Below are positions 7,014-63,870 of a stretch of 64,000 bases of DNA, in pieces (within the stretch, counting starts at the first letter, position 1; each line of letters starts with the position of its first letter). The DNA is from a virus (lineage: Duplodnaviria > Caudoviricetes), in IMG/VR virus record IMGVR_UViG_3300010965_000007, positions 2,602 through 66,601 of that record; one strand, written 5' to 3'. Made by a program: the position numbers and the translations under genes. The notes under the pieces were generated by a model that saw only the letters and a program-made list of their open reading frames with translations, did not search any database and was not told where the DNA came from.

Positions 7014-7511
7014 TTATTCTAAAGGAGGCCAGTACCCACAGAATACAATTTCCTCGCTTTCAAATATAACTGCATCAGGTATTATAATGTCTTTTTTAAT
7101 AACCTTTATTAATTTATCATGGCAGATTATTCCATTAGGATATAATGTCTGCCTAAGCACATTTAAAAGAGACTGTTGGCACCCCACTAGCACATGTATT
7201 TCTGCTCTTTTTGAAAATGAATTAGCAAATTCTCCGGCTAAAAGACAGTACATTCTGCTTTTATCTATATTATGTTTTTGAGCTTCTTCCGTTAAAACTT
7301 CATTTATTACAAGGTCCCTCCATGGAAATACAAATTCTCTCATAATAGCCAATGCTTTTTCTTCTAAATATTGTTTTCCAATTTTTAATAGGATATCGGG
7401 GTCAACATCTAACAGATCGTATAACCTATTTACATCGTTTACTTCTATTAGACCATTTGCATATTGAGTGTCTGTTCCAATACTGTTTGTGAGATTTAAA
7501 ATTTTAGGCAC
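7014..7511 (-). CDS. Paralog family A member 4
   Basis: MPKILNLT...EFVFPW...HVLVG...FCGYWPP; GTG start after a GGAGA RBS. Confidence 0.8.
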   Translation of the reverse strand: MPKILNLTNSIGTDTQYANGLIEVNDVNRLYDLLDVDPDILLKIGKQYLEEKALAIMREFVFPWRDLVINEVLTEEAQKHNIDKSRMYCLLAGEFANSFSKRAEIHVLVGCQQSLLNVLRQTLYPNGIICHDKLIKVIKKDIIIPDAVIFESEEIVFCGYWPPLE

Positions 7512-7630: not shown

Positions 7631-8134
7631 TCAGATCTTTTCTAGAGGAGGCCAGTAACCGCAGAATATGACATCCTCTTCTACTTTGACATCCCCGTTT
7701 GGCTCAAAGTAGTTGCTTTCCCCCGTTGTAGTAAGAGCATAATGGCATACAATGTCGTGGGATTCAAAAATGCGTTTTAAAACAGGAGTAAGTATTTCAT
7801 CCCCCCCGATCATAACATGCATTTTTGTCACTTCATTAAAGGCACCAAGCATTTCGACAAGTGGCAGATGGCAACGCCCCTTTCCATCCAGATACCCCTG
7901 CATATATTCCTCTTCAAGAAATTTCTTTATGTGGGCGGCTCTCCATGGAAATACAAATTCAATTAAAATGTTATTTGCTTTTTCTACCAAGTAGCCTTCT
8001 CCTAAAGCCATTAAATCGTAAACGCTTACATCGAGCAGTTCTTTCAGCAATGCTTTGTTTTTTACATTAACCAGACCATTAAGTCTTTGGTTGTCTGTCC
8101 CATTGCCATTTGTAATGTTTAGAATTTCAATCAC
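7631..8134 (-). CDS. Paralog family A member 3
   Basis: MIEILNIT...EFVFPW...HVMIGG...FCGYWPP. Confidence 0.8.
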   Translation of the reverse strand: MIEILNITNGNGTDNQRLNGLVNVKNKALLKELLDVSVYDLMALGEGYLVEKANNILIEFVFPWRAAHIKKFLEEEYMQGYLDGKGRCHLPLVEMLGAFNEVTKMHVMIGGDEILTPVLKRIFESHDIVCHYALTTTGESNYFEPNGDVKVEEDVIFCGYWPPLEKI

Positions 8135-8931: not shown

Positions 8932-9432
8932 CTATGTATTTATGGCTGGATAAAAAGAAGCGTATCCTTCAACTGGGTCTTTGTATTTCTTTTCTCCGGA
9001 TGATTCTTCAATGACACTTAACATTCCCATATAGTAGTGGTATGTAATTCCGTTTGAATTGAGTTTTGATTTTAAGACATCCATTAGAGGCCCTCTTCCA
9101 TCGATTAATACATGGGCCCTAATTGCTTCCGATAATTTTTCTCTTGATTCAATTTTGATGTAACCAATGCTTCTGTGAAATTTATTTTTAGATTCTAAGT
9201 CTAATCTTTCTTCCAAAGTAGTTCTGACATTGCTATCTCTCCATGGCAGAACAAACTCAGACATTATTCTATTTGCTCTTATAATTAAATAATTTTCTCC
9301 TTTTTCTTCTAGAGTTCTGGTATCTAATGTTAATATTCTTCTTAAACTTTCTACATCGCTTACATCCACCACGCCTGCTATTATCTGATACTCTGTGGCG
9401 GCACTTTGAGTAAGATTCAGTATTTTTTGCAT
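8932..9432 (-). CDS. Paralog family A member 1
   Basis: MQKILNLTQSAATEYQIIAGVVD...EFVLPW...HVLIDG...SFYP. Confidence 0.8.
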   Translation of the reverse strand: MQKILNLTQSAATEYQIIAGVVDVSDVESLRRILTLDTRTLEEKGENYLIIRANRIMSEFVLPWRDSNVRTTLEERLDLESKNKFHRSIGYIKIESREKLSEAIRAHVLIDGRGPLMDVLKSKLNSNGITYHYYMGMLSVIEESSGEKKYKDPVEGYASFYPAINT

Positions 9433-15660: not shown

Positions 15661-17127
15661 TTATGCTTCTTCAAGCAATAAGAATTTATTGATTGTGTCT
15701 TCTGTTACAATTCTGGGCTGTGAATCAGAAAGCCAATTAGCAAATGTTGCTATTACGGTTTTTGGCATACTTATGTTTCTAGAGAATTGTCTTGGTGAGT
15801 CCAATGTCATAATGTTTTTATGCGGAGATAAATTATACCATAGTTCCCGCATTTTGTTATCAATGGCTAGTGTGAAGTTATAAGAATCTCCATCAAAATC
15901 TCCATTTGGTGCTCTTATGATTAAAATGGATATTCCTACAGTTAAATCTCCTGGGTCGGTTTTTACTTTAGATATTCCTACTAATTGAGCTGATCCTTGC
16001 AATAGAGAAGGATTACGTTGAACAATGCAAGGTATTCTTCCAACTTCAGATTCAGAAATTAATTCTTTAAAAAGATCATCTAAAAGTGGATGATATTCAG
16101 TTACATGCGCATATAGAAAACCAATGGCTTGATTATAGTTATAGCCTAATTTTAATAATTTATTCATTAAGTGCGGTCTAAAAACAGTTGCCCCCACACC
16201 CCATGGGATATGAATTTCGTCATAAAAATGTGGTTTTGTAATAGACGTTACTACTGTTCTAAAACTAAAATGGGCTCTTGATCCAAATATATGCTTTCTA
16301 AGTATTCCTAGTTTTGTTGATAATTTTTCTTTATGAAAATACTCATAATAAGATGCTAATTTTGATATGGCTTTTACCGTTCTATTTTCTTTTTCTGTTA
16401 ATTTTTTTCTAGAGTCCAAATCTACTCCAGTCATTAATCTAATTGCATCCATTGCAATTAGTATTCCTTTATCTATATACACTCCTAAATTTGTTTTTTG
16501 AATAATAAGTAAAGCCCGATTTGGCATTGGTATATATTGGCTAAATACACAATTCATGTTATATATAATTAAATCATACAGATAATCTCGTTTTTTTCCT
16601 TTTAGACGAAATGCTTTTAGTTGAAATAAAAAAGATATTATTTCTAAAAAATTTGTTACAAAATTATTATATCCTCGTTTTATATCTAAGGCGATTAATT
16701 CATCAATTATTTTTGGTTTTTTAATGTTCGATCTATAAGACGTATCGCATATCCATTGCAGAATGCTAAATCCATTTACGCATAATCTGTCTTCTAACAT
16801 TATCCAAACTGTAGGATTTATTAAAGCAATTATTCCTTCTGGAGCTTTAAACCAAATTAATGGATCTATTTCTCCAGCAATAATTGGTTTAACATCGCTA
16901 TAGCATTCTCTACAGTGCTGCCCGATTGAATACCCCCCGCTTAATTTTCCACAATTGCATGAAGGAAGCGCACTTAATGTATCTCCAGTAAAACGCACAC
17001 GAACAAATCCGTCTATTACATCTTTTTCATCTAAAGAAGAATCTAATAAATTATTCAAAATTATTGGTGAATTTTTTAATTGCGAAACCATTTCATCAAA
17101 ATTTATTAACTTTTGATAAACTGGCAT
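15661..17127 (-). CDS. Non-virion RNA polymerase beta' N-terminal (catalytic) subunit, phiKZ gp55-like, uninterrupted
   Basis: N-terminal Zn-ribbon cysteines, RKHIFGSR, QRNPSL, and the catalytic APNGDFDGD motif. Adjacent to chimallin. AGGAG RBS at 17138-17142. Confidence 0.92.
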   Translation of the reverse strand: MPVYQKLINFDEMVSQLKNSPIILNNLLDSSLDEKDVIDGFVRVRFTGDTLSALPSCNCGKLSGGYSIGQHCRECYSDVKPIIAGEIDPLIWFKAPEGIIALINPTVWIMLEDRLCVNGFSILQWICDTSYRSNIKKPKIIDELIALDIKRGYNNFVTNFLEIISFLFQLKAFRLKGKKRDYLYDLIIYNMNCVFSQYIPMPNRALLIIQKTNLGVYIDKGILIAMDAIRLMTGVDLDSRKKLTEKENRTVKAISKLASYYEYFHKEKLSTKLGILRKHIFGSRAHFSFRTVVTSITKPHFYDEIHIPWGVGATVFRPHLMNKLLKLGYNYNQAIGFLYAHVTEYHPLLDDLFKELISESEVGRIPCIVQRNPSLLQGSAQLVGISKVKTDPGDLTVGISILIIRAPNGDFDGDSYNFTLAIDNKMRELWYNLSPHKNIMTLDSPRQFSRNISMPKTVIATFANWLSDSQPRIVTEDTINKFLLLEEA

Positions 17128-17161
17128 TAATTTAAAACTCCTAAAAAAACTTTTAAAAAAA

Positions 17162-17203
17162 AGACACCGGCAACTGCTTTTTTAATAGCAGCGCCAGGTG
17201 TCT
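17162..17203 (-). terminator. Terminator-like hairpin between the minigene array and the RNAP beta' RBS
   Basis: Imperfect stem agacacc-ggc..ctgct / agcag-cgcc-ggtgtct, followed on the minus strand by a T-run (A-run at 17155-17161). Confidence 0.65.
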
Positions 17204-17239
17204 AGTAGTAGGTTTTTTATTCTAATGGTGGCTAATATT

Positions 17240-18181
17240 TTACTGGGGCGGCATAGTTGGCACCTATCTATATTTGGTTATTTATTTTTACTAAAAATGA
17301 GCTTTTTACTCCGGCGGCATTGTTAGCACCTACTTAATGGCATTTTTAATGTTTTGGCATTCATTTAGGAGAGGCGGTTTGCTGGTATTTTGAGCGCCGG
17401 CCAATAAGGGCGGCTTCTCTTAGCAATGCTGATAACGCACCCGTCCTAGTCTCTCACTCGGTATCCAACCGGACCTAGTGAGGCTCCAAAATGTTTTTTA
17501 CTCCGGCGGCATTGTTAGCACCTACTTATAACTAATGTTTTTTTGGCTTTTTCATTTATAAGGGTGTTGAGACATAAGGGCCTTTTAGTCTAGCCGCTTC
17601 TGGTCTCTAATGTGTTTTTACTTCGGCGGCATTGTTAGCACCTACTTATAACTAATGGCTTTTTAGAGGCAAATTATCAGGGTGTTGAGACATAAGGGCC
17701 TTTTAGTCTAGCCGCTTCTGGTCTCTGATGTGTTCTTACTCCGGCGGCATTGTTAGCACCTATTTATAACTAGTTATCTATATTTTTAGGTATGGGATTT
17801 TTCGCTATGAGCATTGGCTTGCGTGCTTAAGTCGCTATTTTTAAAGATAGCTGCTTTTAGCGGCAACGCCGTTTGCTTTTTGCGGCCTTTTAGCGAGCAC
17901 TTAGGCTCTAAAATGTTTTTTTACTTCGGCGGCATTATTAGCACCTATTTATTACTAATTTAATTTTGGAGAACAGAAACTGCGAAGAGGTCAGGCTTTA
18001 CGTATCTATCGCAGCATGTTAGCGATCTATGCGCTATGGACTCTAAAATGATATTCTTACTGGGGCGGCATTTTTAGCACCTATTTAACGGCATTGTTTT
18101 GGAGATATATTATCGAAGCTGCCTTTAGGCGAGCACTTAGGCTCTAAAATGTTTTTTATTGCGGCGGCATTTTAGCACCTT
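17240..18181 (-). repeat. Array of 8 repeats, each an SD-like AGGTG plus an ATG-CCG-CCS-VAR-TAA (Met-Pro-Pro-X-stop) minigene
   Basis: Minigenes at 18156-18170 (MPPQ), 18057-18071 (MPPQ), 17921-17935 (MPPK), 17736-17750 (MPPE), 17618-17632 (MPPK), 17498-17512 (MPPE), 17306-17320 (MPPE), 17240-17254 (MPPQ). ATG-to-ATG periods are 99, 136, 185, 118, 120, 192 and 66 nt. Confidence 0.9.
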
Positions 18182-18230
18182 TTTAAATATTGATACAATT
18201 TTAATTATTACAAAATATTGCTATATTATA

Positions 18231-20135
18231 TTACTGGCGCCATTGACGATTATTGCCAACAAACATTCCTGGTGTGAAATTAGGTTGCCCAAATGCCCCA
18301 CCGGGATTAAAGAATCCTTGGCCAGGAGCAATTAGCGCCGAGTTGACAAAGTTTGCCACGCCGCGCTGATTGTTGAAATCGCTAGTATTCAATGGTGTCA
18401 TTATTCTGACATTTGGGTTAGCGTCTCTTACGCTTTTGCCTAATGCGTCCATAAATGCCGATGTAAATGTGATTCTTTGAGCAAATCCAGTAAATTCCGC
18501 AGAATCGCCAGATAACCCCAAAAGCATTCTTTTTCTTTGAGCCAATCGAACATTAAGCGGCCCGCATTCTGGCACCCATGTGTCCGACCAATCTCTGATG
18601 AAAGTTGGAGACGTTTCGCCAAAATAATTCACGACAGCCAAATAATCAAAATCTCTCAAGTCTCTTTTCTGACCTGACCGATCTGTCCAATGCCCAAGAT
18701 GCACTCTGTTTCCAATATCGGTAAAAATAGGCATTCCTTCTGCAAAATATCTTGAGAAATGACCGTTTGTCAATGTGTTTGCTGCATTATAAATGGCCAT
18801 GTACGCTGGATGCGGATCTTTTCCAATTGACGCAGCCAAGAATACTGACGAATACCAGGTTTGAGGGCCGCATTCTGGGACATCGAGAGAAACGATCAAG
18901 CCGGGCTGAATCAGCGCTCCAATGTATTGCCCTAATTCTTCCATTTTAAACTTGTCATTTTTGACATCGACTCTTGTTCCAAACAGCCCTGGCTCCCCTT
19001 TCAAATTGGCGTCTATGTTGAGCGCTCCAATGTCATGCGGATCAAAACCGTCTCCGCTGGTCATTGTCGGCCTAAAAGATTGTATCCAATTGTTATTTTC
19101 TCGCGCAGCCAATGCTGTCGAAAGAGTTAAAAGCACGCTTCCAAGAGTATAAGATGCGCTGCTAGCAATATTGGTAATTACCATACGAGGAGCATAAAAA
19201 TAAGACGGCATTTGATTTTGCTGAGGATAGCCGTTCATTGCCTGGAAACGACCTTGGAACCCCTGCAATGCGCGATTTTGAATATATATTAAATCAATGA
19301 ATGCCGACATCGAGCTAATGACGCTTTCTCTGGCCCCGGAATTTATTGACACTTGGCGATTCATTTCTCCTCTGGCGGCTTGAGAAGTAAACTGCACCAA
19401 AACATCGCTTCTCATTGGCGACCCGCAAGCATCGGCAATTTGTTGGCGGTTAAATGCAATATTTACAACCAGATTGGCATCGCGGCCGCTAACAGTTGCC
19501 AAATTCATATCCACAAAATCAGGTTTGTGGAATTCCAATTCGTTTCCAGCGGCCAAGCCGGCATTCAAAGCCAAATAATGCACCGACGTTTTGTCTTCCG
19601 GATTGAATTCCCTGGGGACAACGCACCCATCCACCATATAGGATGGAGTATTGGGATAGATTCTCGATACGGCTTGAGAAGCCACCTCAATCAATTCCCG
19701 ATCGAGAGCTTCGCCCGTAACTCTGTATATTTCAATTTGTTGGTTATTAAATGTTTCGTACACCGGAGGAATTTTTTCTCCGGTTGCTTCAATGATAAGG
19801 ACATGCCAAGCTGCGCCTTGAGTTGGTGCAGACCTCATACGAATGCAAACCACAATTGCGGAAAATGCCAGTTTTTTAATGTTTTCTCTATCGAGACATA
19901 TGAGTGTAATTTCTGCATCTGGATGTGCGGTCTTATAGACTTCTTCGAGTTTATCTCTGATCTTCGTTAGAAGTTCAGACCCCACGGCCCCAGAAATCGG
20001 AGCGCCGAACAATCCAGACCCGGTCAGAGACCAGGTTGGGCCAGACGAAGATACATTCGTGACAGGCGGAACAGAAGAATTAGGAGTCTGATTAGAATTA
20101 GGTTGTTGGGAAGTAAAAGCGTCATTAACTGCCAT
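18231..20135 (-). CDS. chmA: Chimallin, major nuclear shell protein
   Basis: Likely start MAVNDAF at 20135 (GGAGC RBS). Blocks such as DACGSPMRSDVLV, DIGAL...RVDVK..KF, VHLGHW...KRDLRDFDYLAVVN and FTGFAQRITFTSAFMDAL align with the 201phi2-1 gp105 sequence as recalled. Adjacent to nvRNAP beta'. Confidence 0.9.
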   Translation of the reverse strand: MAVNDAFTSQQPNSNQTPNSSVPPVTNVSSSGPTWSLTGSGLFGAPISGAVGSELLTKIRDKLEEVYKTAHPDAEITLICLDRENIKKLAFSAIVVCIRMRSAPTQGAAWHVLIIEATGEKIPPVYETFNNQQIEIYRVTGEALDRELIEVASQAVSRIYPNTPSYMVDGCVVPREFNPEDKTSVHYLALNAGLAAGNELEFHKPDFVDMNLATVSGRDANLVVNIAFNRQQIADACGSPMRSDVLVQFTSQAARGEMNRQVSINSGARESVISSMSAFIDLIYIQNRALQGFQGRFQAMNGYPQQNQMPSYFYAPRMVITNIASSASYTLGSVLLTLSTALAARENNNWIQSFRPTMTSGDGFDPHDIGALNIDANLKGEPGLFGTRVDVKNDKFKMEELGQYIGALIQPGLIVSLDVPECGPQTWYSSVFLAASIGKDPHPAYMAIYNAANTLTNGHFSRYFAEGMPIFTDIGNRVHLGHWTDRSGQKRDLRDFDYLAVVNYFGETSPTFIRDWSDTWVPECGPLNVRLAQRKRMLLGLSGDSAEFTGFAQRITFTSAFMDALGKSVRDANPNVRIMTPLNTSDFNNQRGVANFVNSALIAPGQGFFNPGGAFGQPNFTPGMFVGNNRQWRQ

Positions 20136-20150
20136 TTTATGCTCCAGGAG

Positions 20151-20189
20151 TTTAAACACATCCTGTTTTTAAGACAGGATGTGTTTAAA
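20151..20189 (-). promoter_or_regulatory. 16-bp perfect hairpin directly upstream of the chmA ribosome-binding site
   Basis: tttaaacacatcctgt-N7-acaggatgtgtttaaa, ending 15 nt before the ATG. Confidence 0.55.
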
Positions 20190-20322
20190 AAGAAGGTGTG
20201 CTTTATGCACACGATTAATAACTCGTTGTTTCAAAATAATAGTAAACTCCCGCCTGTCCTAGACGAGGCGGCATTTCCTACCAATTAATAAACCATCGAA
20301 GTATTTTTTTATTTAAATGCAA

Positions 20323-20790: not shown

Positions 20791-20835
20791 TTTTTTGGCC
20801 TTTCTTAAAAACGATAATATTATTTATGTATTTTA

Positions 20836-20860
20836 TAAAGTATATATAACTGTTTTTTTA
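20836..20860 (-). promoter_or_regulatory. Representative early-promoter-like motif (plus strand aagTATATRTRRY...; about 20 copies)
   Basis: Cores at about 5181, 6939, 7572, 8856, 9492, 14721, 20841, 23091, 32349, 32878, 33423, 33960, 35506, 36215, 36935, 60853, 62013, 62623, 63180 and 63931. All are intergenic and upstream of minus-strand genes. Confidence 0.7.
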
Positions 20861-20905
20861 TTGGAGGCGTTTTTTACTTTCAACCTTTTATAATGGAAAT
20901 AATAA

Positions 20906-32975: not shown

Positions 32976-33362
32976 TTACGCCAGCCCTTTTAAAATCTCG
33001 GTTAAATCCATGCAGAAGTATTCGAAGTTTGGGTTATCATCAAAATAATAGGGCTCCGGGTGAAAATCGTATTCCCGCATAAAGGCTCGTTTATTCAGGG
33101 CCTTTACATATTTGATAATTAGTTCTGGATCGCTATGCTCATAATAGATTATTTGCCAATTTCCTTTTTCTTTATTTCCAGATTGCCAGTGTGGCGATAA
33201 AACAAAACACCCAGGACTTCTGTTTTTTTTGAAAACTATTATTTCATACTGATTTCTTATAGATTTATATTTCCAATTTCTAAAAAATTCATCTCCTTCT
33301 GCACTATGGCCCGCCGGCGCAAATACATTATCGGTTCCCAAAAATAATTTGGAATCAGTCAT
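32976..33362 (-). CDS. Hypothetical protein, paralog of 33513-33890
   Basis: Shared D.VF....EG..F...WK...GCF.LSP...W...YYE...P.YF pattern. Confidence 0.7.
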   Translation of the reverse strand: MTDSKLFLGTDNVFAPAGHSAEGDEFFRNWKYKSIRNQYEIIVFKKNRSPGCFVLSPHWQSGNKEKGNWQIIYYEHSDPELIIKYVKALNKRAFMREYDFHPEPYYFDDNPNFEYFCMDLTEILKGLA

Positions 33363-38441: not shown

Positions 38442-38526
<85 letters not shown>

Positions 38527-38718
38527 GTTATATACAGCTATTTATCAATTCTGTCCTTGTACAAAGGAGGAGCTTCTCTGTTTTTTTGAATTTTATTCCG
38601 CAGCTCTTTCCATTGGCTTTTGATTTTATCTAAATAAATTAAATACATAGCGATTACTTTTTCAACTTGTTCTTCAACAAAAGCTTTCATTTTTTAGTTC
38701 TACCAAAAGAAAGAGAGG

Positions 38719-38795
38719 TGGAGCCCGCGGTCGGAGTCGAACCGACGACCTGCTGCTTACAAAGCAGCTGCTCTAACCAACTGAGCTAAACGGGC
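38719..38795 (-). tRNA. tRNA-Thr (anticodon UGU)
   Basis: GCCCGTTTAGCTCAGTTGGTTAGAGC, GCTGC-TTTGTAA-GCAGC, GGTTCGACTCC, encoded CCA. Confidence 0.92.
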
Positions 38796-38804
38796 TTAAT
38801 TAAA

Positions 38805-38880
38805 TGGTGCCCCCAGAAGGATTTGAACCTACGACCAAAGGATTATGAGTCCTCTGCTCTAACCGCTGAGCTATAGGGGC
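38805..38880 (-). tRNA. tRNA with CAU anticodon (Ile2-like or elongator Met)
   Basis: GCCCCTATAGCTCAGCGGTTAGAGCAGAGGA-CTCATAA-TCCTT...GGTTCAAATCC...CCA. The body resembles bacterial tRNA-Ile2. Confidence 0.88.
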
Positions 38881-62094: not shown

Positions 62095-62562
62095 TTAGTT
62101 GACGCAGATTGGAAAAAACCCCAGGATCTGAAAGAAGAAGTCGACACTCAATGGTTGTTCTAGGGTTGGAGGCGAATAAACGCCTTTATTTTTGTTTTTC
62201 CAATATTCTTCCAATGCTGTATTCATGCTGTCGGATAACGAAGCACACAAGTCCAGCAATTCGCCGTTTGTATAGTGCTCGTATATAACCGCCGCATAAT
62301 TGCCATTTTTCAGGTAAACTCCACACCGACGATGGCTGTCGATAAACGACAAGCACGCCGCATTGTCGCGGCACAGTGCTCCGAGACTCTCGCATTGAGC
62401 CATCGTTAAGGCAGATTCTCCATTCACCATGCCGTGAAATTCCAAGGAATTCTCGGCCCACGCTGGGTTAAACCTGACTGTGGGTAATTCTCCGAAAAGA
62501 TTAAAAAACGTTTGATACGCTTTATTTTCGGTGTGGTCAGAATTTTCAGTGCAGTCGGCCAT
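62095..62562 (-). CDS. Paralog family B member
   Basis: LPTVRFNPAW...RRCGVYLKNG..AVIYE...FFQILGFFPIC. Confidence 0.8.
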   Translation of the reverse strand: MADCTENSDHTENKAYQTFFNLFGELPTVRFNPAWAENSLEFHGMVNGESALTMAQCESLGALCRDNAACLSFIDSHRRCGVYLKNGNYAAVIYEHYTNGELLDLCASLSDSMNTALEEYWKNKNKGVYSPPTLEQPLSVDFFFQILGFFPICVN

Positions 62563-63303: not shown

Positions 63304-63870
63304 CTATTCCGGATCAATGTCTATGGGAAAGAGTTTCAAGATCTCCAGGAGGCCGTCGAAGGTTATTTCGGATGCCACCGGAGAACAGAAATTCATACGG
63401 TCCGGATTTTTCACTCCCGCCTTTTTAGCTTCGTTTTCCCAGTTGAAAAACAGGGCGCGCACGAGTTCATCGCAGCTATTAGATACCAGCCTATAGCTGT
63501 CCTCGCCGCTATAGCGTTCAAATATAGCTATTCTGATTCGGGCAAAGTATTGAGAGCTTTGGTCAAAGCACAAAGGAGAGCCGTCTTTTTCTTTTTCCAG
63601 ATAAACCCCTCTTCTGCCGTCGTCCGTTATAAACGACGCAGCTACAGTCACTTCAGCTGGCGTCGTTTCCTCGTTTCTCAAATACATGCCGCCCAATGTG
63701 GCGCAGTCGGCCGTATTGAGAGACGAAGGGCCGTTGATTATTCCGTTCATGTAGCCAGTGCCGTTGTGCCACTCTTGCATGAAAGGGATTCTAGGCAAGA
63801 CTTCGTGAAGAATTACGAACTGCGCATGAGCTCTTTGAATCGGGTTTAGTTGTTTGATTGTGCCAGCCAT
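63304..63870 (-). CDS. Paralog family B member
   Basis: LPRIPFMQEW.NG...GRRGVYL...IAIFE...LLEILKLFPID. Confidence 0.8.
   Translation of the reverse strand: MAGTIKQLNPIQRAHAQFVILHEVLPRIPFMQEWHNGTGYMNGIINGPSSLNTADCATLGGMYLRNEETTPAEVTVAASFITDDGRRGVYLEKEKDGSPLCFDQSSQYFARIRIAIFERYSGEDSYRLVSNSCDELVRALFFNWENEAKKAGVKNPDRMNFCSPVASEITFDGLLEILKLFPIDIDPE

Follow-up and report, generated by a model that had tools for sequence, protein, structure and literature searches.

Eight Shine-Dalgarno-led Met-Pro-Pro repeat units between the chimallin and RNA polymerase subunit genes of an uncultured giant phage

The repeat array in the gap behind chmA

We have analysed a 64,000-nucleotide (nt) stretch, called the window below, of the IMG/VR virus record IMGVR_UViG_3300010965_000007, a contig of 66.6 kb that is estimated to hold 24% of the genome of an uncultured freshwater nucleus-forming giant phage. 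In this window, the chimallin gene chmA is followed on the minus strand by the gene of an nvRNAP (RNA polymerase) subunit, and matches to PF25677, phrog_4795 and phrog_2987 bear out this context, which an earlier note had read from the sequence (Table 1). At 1103 nt, the gap between the two genes far exceeds every other non-coding gap of the window, and it is filled by eight direct repeats at 17240-18186, in the orientation of the flanking genes. The earlier note had described them as eight units of a Shine-Dalgarno (SD) sequence plus Met-Pro-Pro-X-stop on the chmA strand, spanning 17240-18181. Actually, all eight can be read, none is expected in shuffled sequences, and that span is right to a few bases. 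We give about an even chance to the following reading: the array is transcribed, probably as a 3' extension of the chimallin message, and its RNA carries eight minigene modules with Pro-Pro that engage ribosomes.

The consensus of the units is AGGTGC(T/C)AA, 1-3 variable nt, ATG CCG CC(G/C) (C/G/A)A(A/G) TAA. That is, each unit holds an SD-led open reading frame (ORF) of four sense codons followed by UAA, and the ATG, the reading frame and the TAA are intact in 8/8 units. Between AGGTG and the ATG there are 6 nt, or 5 nt in the case of unit 1; the spacer sequence is variable, with one indel. A 19-nt degenerate pattern with at most two mismatches gives seven matches, compared with 0.00 expected from 100 dinucleotide shuffles; unit 1 is missing from these matches because its spacer is 1 nt shorter, and the upstream-half pattern TARRTAGGTGCYAA matches all eight units. 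Over the 31-nt core, 22 columns are invariant and the mean pairwise identity is 0.88, versus 0.45 and 0.44 in the flanks. As a rough estimate, 1-3 in 1000 random conserved 31-mers would combine an SD, a properly spaced ATG and an in-frame stop.

Two further conserved elements, neither of them in the earlier note, flank this arrangement. One is TAAGT/TAAAT 5' of AGGTG, which belongs to a longer match with the 16S 3' tail; the other is a downstream box, (A)CATTTTAGAG(C/A)C, found 3' of the mini-ORF in six of the eight units. The periods between units are irregular (66, 192, 120, 118, 185, 136 and 99 nt).

Independent assemblies of the same phage from several freshwater samples and studies show the array with 100% identity, unless the contig ends inside it, so an assembly artefact can be dismissed. 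No strain variation was seen among all retrievable copies of the locus, which are identical or cut within the array. In addition, the unit motif was found nowhere else in ~107 kb of this genome, and an nhmmer profile of the unit detected no further or degenerate copies in the window, in relatives, or in the further ~43 kb of this genome to which contig walking gave access. A general phage promoter was rejected on this ground, and early promoters in this phage have another motif. The gap contains no tRNA or tmRNA genes (the window's only tRNAs form the cluster in Table 1), its small plus-strand ORFs match no Pfam family, and a search for antisense complementarity between the array and other parts of the window gave chance-level AT-rich matches only.

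Table 1 Features of the locus, of the rest of the window and of related loci. Positions are those of the window, except in the last row, where they follow our locus labels (aa, amino acids; SD/anti-SD, duplex energy of the Shine-Dalgarno sequence with the 16S tail).
Feature	Position	Strand	Details
chmA (chimallin)	18231..20135	-	634 aa from ATG 20135; ORF from GTG 20159 = 642 aa; PF25677 1e-33, phrog_4795 1e-87
Array RNA, presumed chmA 3' extension	17154..18230	-	GC 0.37-0.45 (300-nt windows) vs 0.34 in the window; A-rich sense strand
Unit 1 core	18156..18186	-	AGGTG 18180-18176, ATG 18170, MPPQ, TAA end 18156; SD/anti-SD -6.3 kcal/mol
Unit 2 core	18057..18087	-	ATG 18071, MPPQ, CCC CAG; SD/anti-SD -6.1 kcal/mol
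Unit 3 core	17921..17951	-	ATG 17935, MPPK
Unit 4 core	17736..17766	-	ATG 17750, MPPE
Unit 5 core	17618..17648	-	ATG 17632, MPPK; extended SD UAAGUAGGUG, 9/10 vs 16S-tail complement; SD/anti-SD -9.0 kcal/mol
Unit 6 core	17498..17528	-	ATG 17512, MPPE; extended SD; SD/anti-SD -9.0 kcal/mol
Unit 7 core	17306..17336	-	ATG 17320, MPPE; extended SD; SD/anti-SD -8.9 kcal/mol; 66 nt to unit 8
Unit 8 core	17240..17270	-	ATG 17254, MPPQ, CCC CAG; downstream box variant TTAGCCACC
Intrinsic terminator	17154..17203	-	GC-rich stem 17203-17162, 8-U run 17161-17154; -28.9 kcal/mol, z -2.47
nvRNAP subunit gene	15661..17127	-	488 aa, starts ATG CCA; phrog_2987 1e-143
Nearest upstream early-type promoter	20825..20870 (~20848)	-	A/T-rich run + YAYATATAYTT core
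Early-motif examples	63187, 60860, 35513, 32356, 23098, 20848, 14728, 7579, 6946	-	
Early-motif examples	20841, 23091, 63180	+	
tRNA cluster	38442-38880	-	Leu(TAA), Thr(TGT), Met/Ile2(CAT)
Small genes with conserved leader	62095-62562, 63304-63870, 32976-33362, 7014-7511, 7631-8134, 8932-9432	-	
Small-ORF inserts in relatives	L054:6785-7025, L071:6794-7166, L041:6764-7051, L052:4433-4862		

Transcription and initiation strength of the array

The intrinsic terminator lies 3' of unit 8, 26 nt ahead of the start of the nvRNAP gene, and no hairpin follows directly after the chmA stop in this phage. Since the terminator comes only after unit 8, the array sits between chmA and what is, by position, its terminator. 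In the array region the AT skew goes down to -0.32, i.e., the sense strand is rich in A, and this together with the raised GC content fits a strand-specific constraint at the RNA level. A scan of the array for sigma-70-type promoters gave nothing convincing. There is no early-type promoter inside the array either; beyond the nearest one upstream, the next downstream on the minus strand is that at ~14728.

Contigs of three small metatranscriptome libraries from one freshwater study cover 17212-18108 at 99-100% identity, taking in units 2-8 together with their unique spacers. At its lower end this cover meets the minus-strand terminator, consistent with a sense-strand RNA that stops at this point. 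In the same three libraries we found no contigs on the nvRNAP gene, and the chmA coding region is represented only by 19903-20153, in one run. We take this as no more than a hint, and not as evidence, that RNA of the array is longer-lived or more abundant than that of the coding part.

With eight direct repeats in a non-coding gap of this size, the array might also act on the level of DNA, by offering sites to a DNA-binding protein of the phage. It could then be an iteron-like origin, serve packaging or partition, or regulate read-through into the nvRNAP gene. Direct-repeat arrays are typical of origins and terminase-binding regions. However, the irregular spacing shows no helical phasing, there is no dyad symmetry, and an asymmetric core of 31 nt is long for a DNA site. 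The strong strand asymmetry, the transcription unit closed by a terminator and the presence of the region in RNA libraries point the same way, and we regard a role at the DNA level as very improbable.

The earlier note also held that AGGTG complements the 16S anti-SD at a normal distance from the ATG, and in SD/anti-SD energy the units do score as strong initiation sites compared with the phage's own genes. The duplex energy of the eight units ranges from -6.1 to -9.0 kcal/mol, assuming the standard 16S tail, and the median is -4.15 kcal/mol for 74 genes of the window and -2.5 for all ATGs. Only one gene of the window is stronger than units 5-7. The UAAGU/UAAAU upstream of AGGUG lengthens the match to 9/10 positions of UAAGGAGGUG, and the conservation outside the AGGUG core can thus be attributed to the extended complementarity to the 16S tail.

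The codon use of the units is also distinct. Three sense codons follow the ATG in each unit, and 23 of these 24 end in G or C, compared with a phage G + C content at third codon positions of 0.26. CCG and CCC are the two least used Pro codons of the phage (16% and 7%), with 77% being CCA or CCU, and CAG, AAG and GAG are each a minor synonym, at 13-19% of their sets. The phage's tRNAs serve codons that it uses most, namely UUA, with 50% of Leu, ACA, with 45% of Thr, and possibly AUA, with 41% of Ile. This tRNA set hints at a host with GC-richer codon usage. Overall, the strand, the terminator position, the presence in RNA libraries, the SD scores and an architecture like that of CreT and lambda bar favour, in part, the proposal of a putative ribosome-loading array on a 3' extension of chmA.

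Some other features of the window were noticed along the way. The early-type promoter motif, an A/T-rich run followed by a YAYATATAYTTAWTATGAC core, stands ahead of many small genes and presumably marks the early (virion RNA polymerase) class. It has 23 regular-expression matches in the window; 17 on the minus strand are promoter-like (two of them overlap at ~32885), and several on the plus strand are reverse reads or intragenic. Several small genes (about 125-190 aa), grouped here by their size and upstream region, have this promoter, then a conserved 5' leader and a GGAGAG SD. The leader forms a hairpin, GACATAAC-CTTATCATAATGGTAAG-AGTGTCTCAAT, and could be a common regulatory element of the 5' untranslated region (UTR). 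Between a 155-aa gene and chmA, three minus-strand hairpins occur at 20160-20270. Two of them are terminator-like (20267-20249 and 20212-20196), and a perfect hairpin at ~20190-20160 lies directly ahead of the chmA SD.

Points against ribosome engagement and other explanations

Several observations weigh against the array as a set of ribosome-engaging modules, and RNA folding provides the first of them. The RNAalifold consensus is an invariant 5-bp hairpin (-4.1 kcal/mol) in which GGUGC pairs with G-CGCC, i.e., the SD with the Pro codons, so that the loop contains the AUG, and the positions that vary are either in this loop or immediately beside the stem. RNA structure might therefore be what the conserved bases serve. 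In the ensemble of the whole RNA, the SDs are mostly paired, with an unpaired probability of 0.05-0.45, so that the initiation sites may be partly closed, and accessibility in the cores does not exceed that in the spacers. In addition, the conservation spans about -28 to +33, which is wider than a ribosome footprint.

These points would be expected if the array were a non-coding RNA with repeated protein- or RNA-binding modules and the mini-ORF were incidental. The binding element would be a hairpin or a linear motif (GGUGC, loop, GCCGCC, ARUAA, CAUUUUAGAGCC box). It would be bound by a protein of the phage or the host, for instance an RNA binder associated with the nucleus, or a translational repressor with an operator that resembles an initiation site. 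Besides the hairpin and the wide conservation, this explanation is favoured by the array GC content above that of the window, which is usual for functional RNAs of AT-rich genomes, and by the presence of the region in RNA libraries. The downstream box can also pair with the SD/AUG segment. However, this longer hairpin is inconsistent, being the minimum free energy fold in units 1 and 6 only, and the consensus hairpin shows no covariation, every stem position being invariant. The folds of single units are not significant (z -0.9 to +0.5), and Rfam gave no match at permissive thresholds over 16500-19000. What this explanation leaves unaccounted for is the full fit to an initiation site, the in-frame stop and the extended 16S complementarity. 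We consider it possible, though rather doubtful. Hairpins are also predicted within ~20-30 nt of the stop in units 1-6, but they differ among units and their z scores are not significant; unit 8 is followed by the terminator.

The variation among the units offers limited help to the reading as minigenes. Within the 15-nt ORF only positions 9, 10 and 12 vary. Units 2 and 8 have CCCCAGTAA and a nearby AATAT in common, probably from one event, so ~3-4 independent substitutions remain, and the probability that 4 random substitutions in 15 positions all spare ATG and TAA is ~0.13. Of the earlier claim that the variation reflects selection on translation, the intact ATG, frame and TAA therefore stand, but the substitutions are few and the hairpin explains the same bases; synonymous variation within the array is thus a weak argument for translation. 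The absence of T as the first base of codon 4, which had been taken as a sign of selection, carries little information, since a T there would merely shorten the minigene.

Other points on the same side concern codons, copies and the RNA data. CCG CCG or CCG CCC follows the start in all eight units and is minor in the phage; what counts, though, is how rare these codons are in the host and how much tRNA-Pro(CGG) it has. The chmA gene itself uses CCG or CCC for 13/37 Pro codons, and starvation of tRNA-Pro would accordingly harm chmA too. Units 4 and 5 make up a tandem duplicate of 118 nt, 95% identical across 99 nt, and recent duplication accounts for some of the conservation. The RNA evidence comes from one study and consists of strandless contigs, which cannot show absence. 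Co-transcription with chmA, translation, stalling and all downstream effects are steps that the reading has to assume.

The array was not found in the relatives of the phage. The nearest chimallins show 53% identity in a database of 5.8 billion proteins, and the closest cultured one by tblastn is that of Burkholderia phage FLC9 (38% identity), in which the chmA-nvRNAP gap is 165 nt and without the array. At ~40 related chmA loci the gap to the next gene is 35-430 nt, and in most of the relatives read, the chmA stop is closely followed by a strong intrinsic terminator. The chmA-RNAP gaps of related jumbo phages had been proposed in the earlier note as a place to look for the motif; neither the array nor an analogous repeat family was found at these ~40 loci, whose chimallins are at most 53% identical. 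A blastn search of GenBank phages gave no match, and strict and loose minigene patterns in IMG/VR gave single scattered matches only. In the 185,579 prokaryote genomes of GTDB, a 42-bit pattern had two single intracoding matches, about chance level. As no homologous array was found in any collection searched, there is no independent evolutionary test, which again counts against the reading as ribosome-engaging modules. The phiKZ and 201phi2-1 transcriptome papers and a 2026 jumbo-phage review describe nothing comparable.

In several relatives, a small ORF of roughly 50-100 aa with its own SD lies between the chmA terminator and the nvRNAP gene (Table 1), and the chmA-nvRNAP gap appears to be a hotspot of lineage-specific insertions. 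Repeats of other kinds were seen around chmA in related phages. A related chimallivirus carries a GC-rich tandem duplication of ~560 bp (L020:9566-10420, contig of L049; 86-98% identical), mostly outside long ORFs and ~2 kb downstream of chmA, which may be a duplicated structured RNA. Short tandem repeats occur at the 5' end of a chimallin ORF (period 12 nt; L071:4865-4951) and ~3.2 kb upstream of chmA (period 39 nt; L048:1372-1678).

The restriction of the array to one lineage, without homologues, is what one would expect of a functionless recent amplification, in which unequal recombination would have copied a piece similar to the start of a gene (SD + ATG CC...) several times over, leaving the copies as passive cargo of the chmA 3' UTR. 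Some copies are indeed recent duplicates, as seen from the spacer parts common to units 4 and 5 and from the 40 nt common to units 1 and 3. In addition, the nvRNAP genes of several relatives start with ATGCCN, and one has AACAATGCC at its start. However, the core at 88% identity compared with ~45% in the flanks speaks for purifying selection or conversion that is confined to the core, and the array is the same in every assembly read. A 1.1-kb insert of strong ribosome sites in a highly expressed transcript would also be costly if useless. We therefore find a functionless origin distinctly improbable.

A possible mechanism and comparison with known systems

If the array is a ribosome-engaging RNA, the following course can be proposed. 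RNA of the gap on the chmA strand would end at the terminator, and an extended chimallin transcript would be its simplest form. Each module would consist of the extended SD, an AUG 5-6 nt further on, CCG CCS, one further codon (G-ending), UAA and usually then a hairpin. Chimalliviruses transcribe in a compartment that excludes ribosomes, so that transcription and translation are physically separated. For this reason ribosome-coupled attenuation of the terminator was rejected as an explanation, and a ribosome-engaging RNA can have its effect only once exported, either on the translation apparatus of the host or on what becomes of the chimallin message. In the cytoplasm, 30S subunits would bind the eight sites and fMet-Pro-Pro-X would be made. 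Pro-Pro is an intrinsic EF-P-dependent slow step, and such short, SD-tethered Pro-Pro ORFs would be expected to lead to ribosome dwelling, recycling on the same RNA and shedding of peptidyl-tRNA. The RNA would thus act through ribosome engagement, not through its peptide product, and the likely outcome would be that tRNA-Pro, EF-P or Pth capacity is trapped, that the RNA is protected by ribosomes, or both.

By analogy, a more specific form of this mechanism can be imagined, in which the array is a multi-copy CreT-like trap on a highly abundant phage RNA. It would tie up tRNA-Pro(CGG/GGG), EF-P and/or Pth and starve the G/C-ending codons of the host, with the AT-rich phage still translating. 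Such a codon-selective tax on host translation fits the AT-rich codon usage of the phage and its own tRNAs for UUA, ACA and AUG/AUA, although we hold this version to be unlikely. No Pth or EF-P genes occur in the 66.6-kb record, which is uninformative at 24% of a genome. We know of no phage for which codon-selective host shut-off by an RNA has been described as a strategy. Should the units be translated, a giant phage would have in them a simple means, made of RNA, to alter the pools of tRNA, EF-P or Pth or to keep a key early transcript stable.

Single translated minigene RNAs are known, such as lambda bar, CreT and start-stop sites, while to our knowledge neither a tandem array of them nor one in a nucleus-forming phage has been described in print. 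Among repeat-module RNAs, the array resembles CsrB/RsmY/RsmZ and ToxI, which are abundant, overlap SD-like sequence and titrate a partner. Csr/Rsm sponges, however, need GGA in hairpin loops, a placement that the array cores do not show; GGA occurs in 3/8 cores (as GGAG at codon 4 of units 4, 6 and 7), outside the predicted loops, and a Csr/Rsm sponge was rejected. ToxI arrays are exact head-to-tail repeats of 34-45 nt beside a toxin gene, whereas the periods here vary over 66-192 nt and the neighbours are chimallin and an RNA polymerase subunit, so a CRISPR-like or ToxI-like array was also rejected.

CreT, the RNA toxin of CreTA modules in Haloarcula, sequesters the cognate tRNA and acts by being translated, not by its peptide; its ORF stops after a few codons. 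Mutagenesis showed that it needs four elements: a strong SD, an efficient start codon, a pair of minor codons right behind the start and a stem-loop further downstream (PMC8501985). The array units have a strong SD, an efficient start, Pro codons that are minor in phage usage and, loosely, a downstream hairpin. CreT is, on the other hand, a single cellular, archaeal unit with AGA AGA or AUA AUA, repressed by a CRISPR-derived CreA guide with Cascade, whereas here eight tandem units with CCG CCS lie inside the chimallin transcription unit of a lytic giant phage. We found no CreA or Cas partner in the gap, which holds one repeat family, nothing like a CRISPR repeat and no Rfam match, and the array could therefore be CreT-like in action at most, and not a CreTA module.

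The behaviour of SD-led minigenes of 2-8 codons gives a second point of reference. The shorter they are, the more peptidyl-tRNA drop-off and the more ribosome recycling on the same mRNA occur, and they selectively inhibit synthesis of proteins using the codon of the trapped tRNA (PMC2490762). Lambda bar resembles the array in being phage-borne and in having SD-led ORFs of a few codons plus a stop, where rare codons lead to drop-off, tRNA starvation and dependence on Pth. The bar units are single and of two codons (AUG AUA stop), with their effect seen in Pth-defective hosts, while the array has four codons with Pro-Pro, in eight copies, on a presumably very abundant early transcript.

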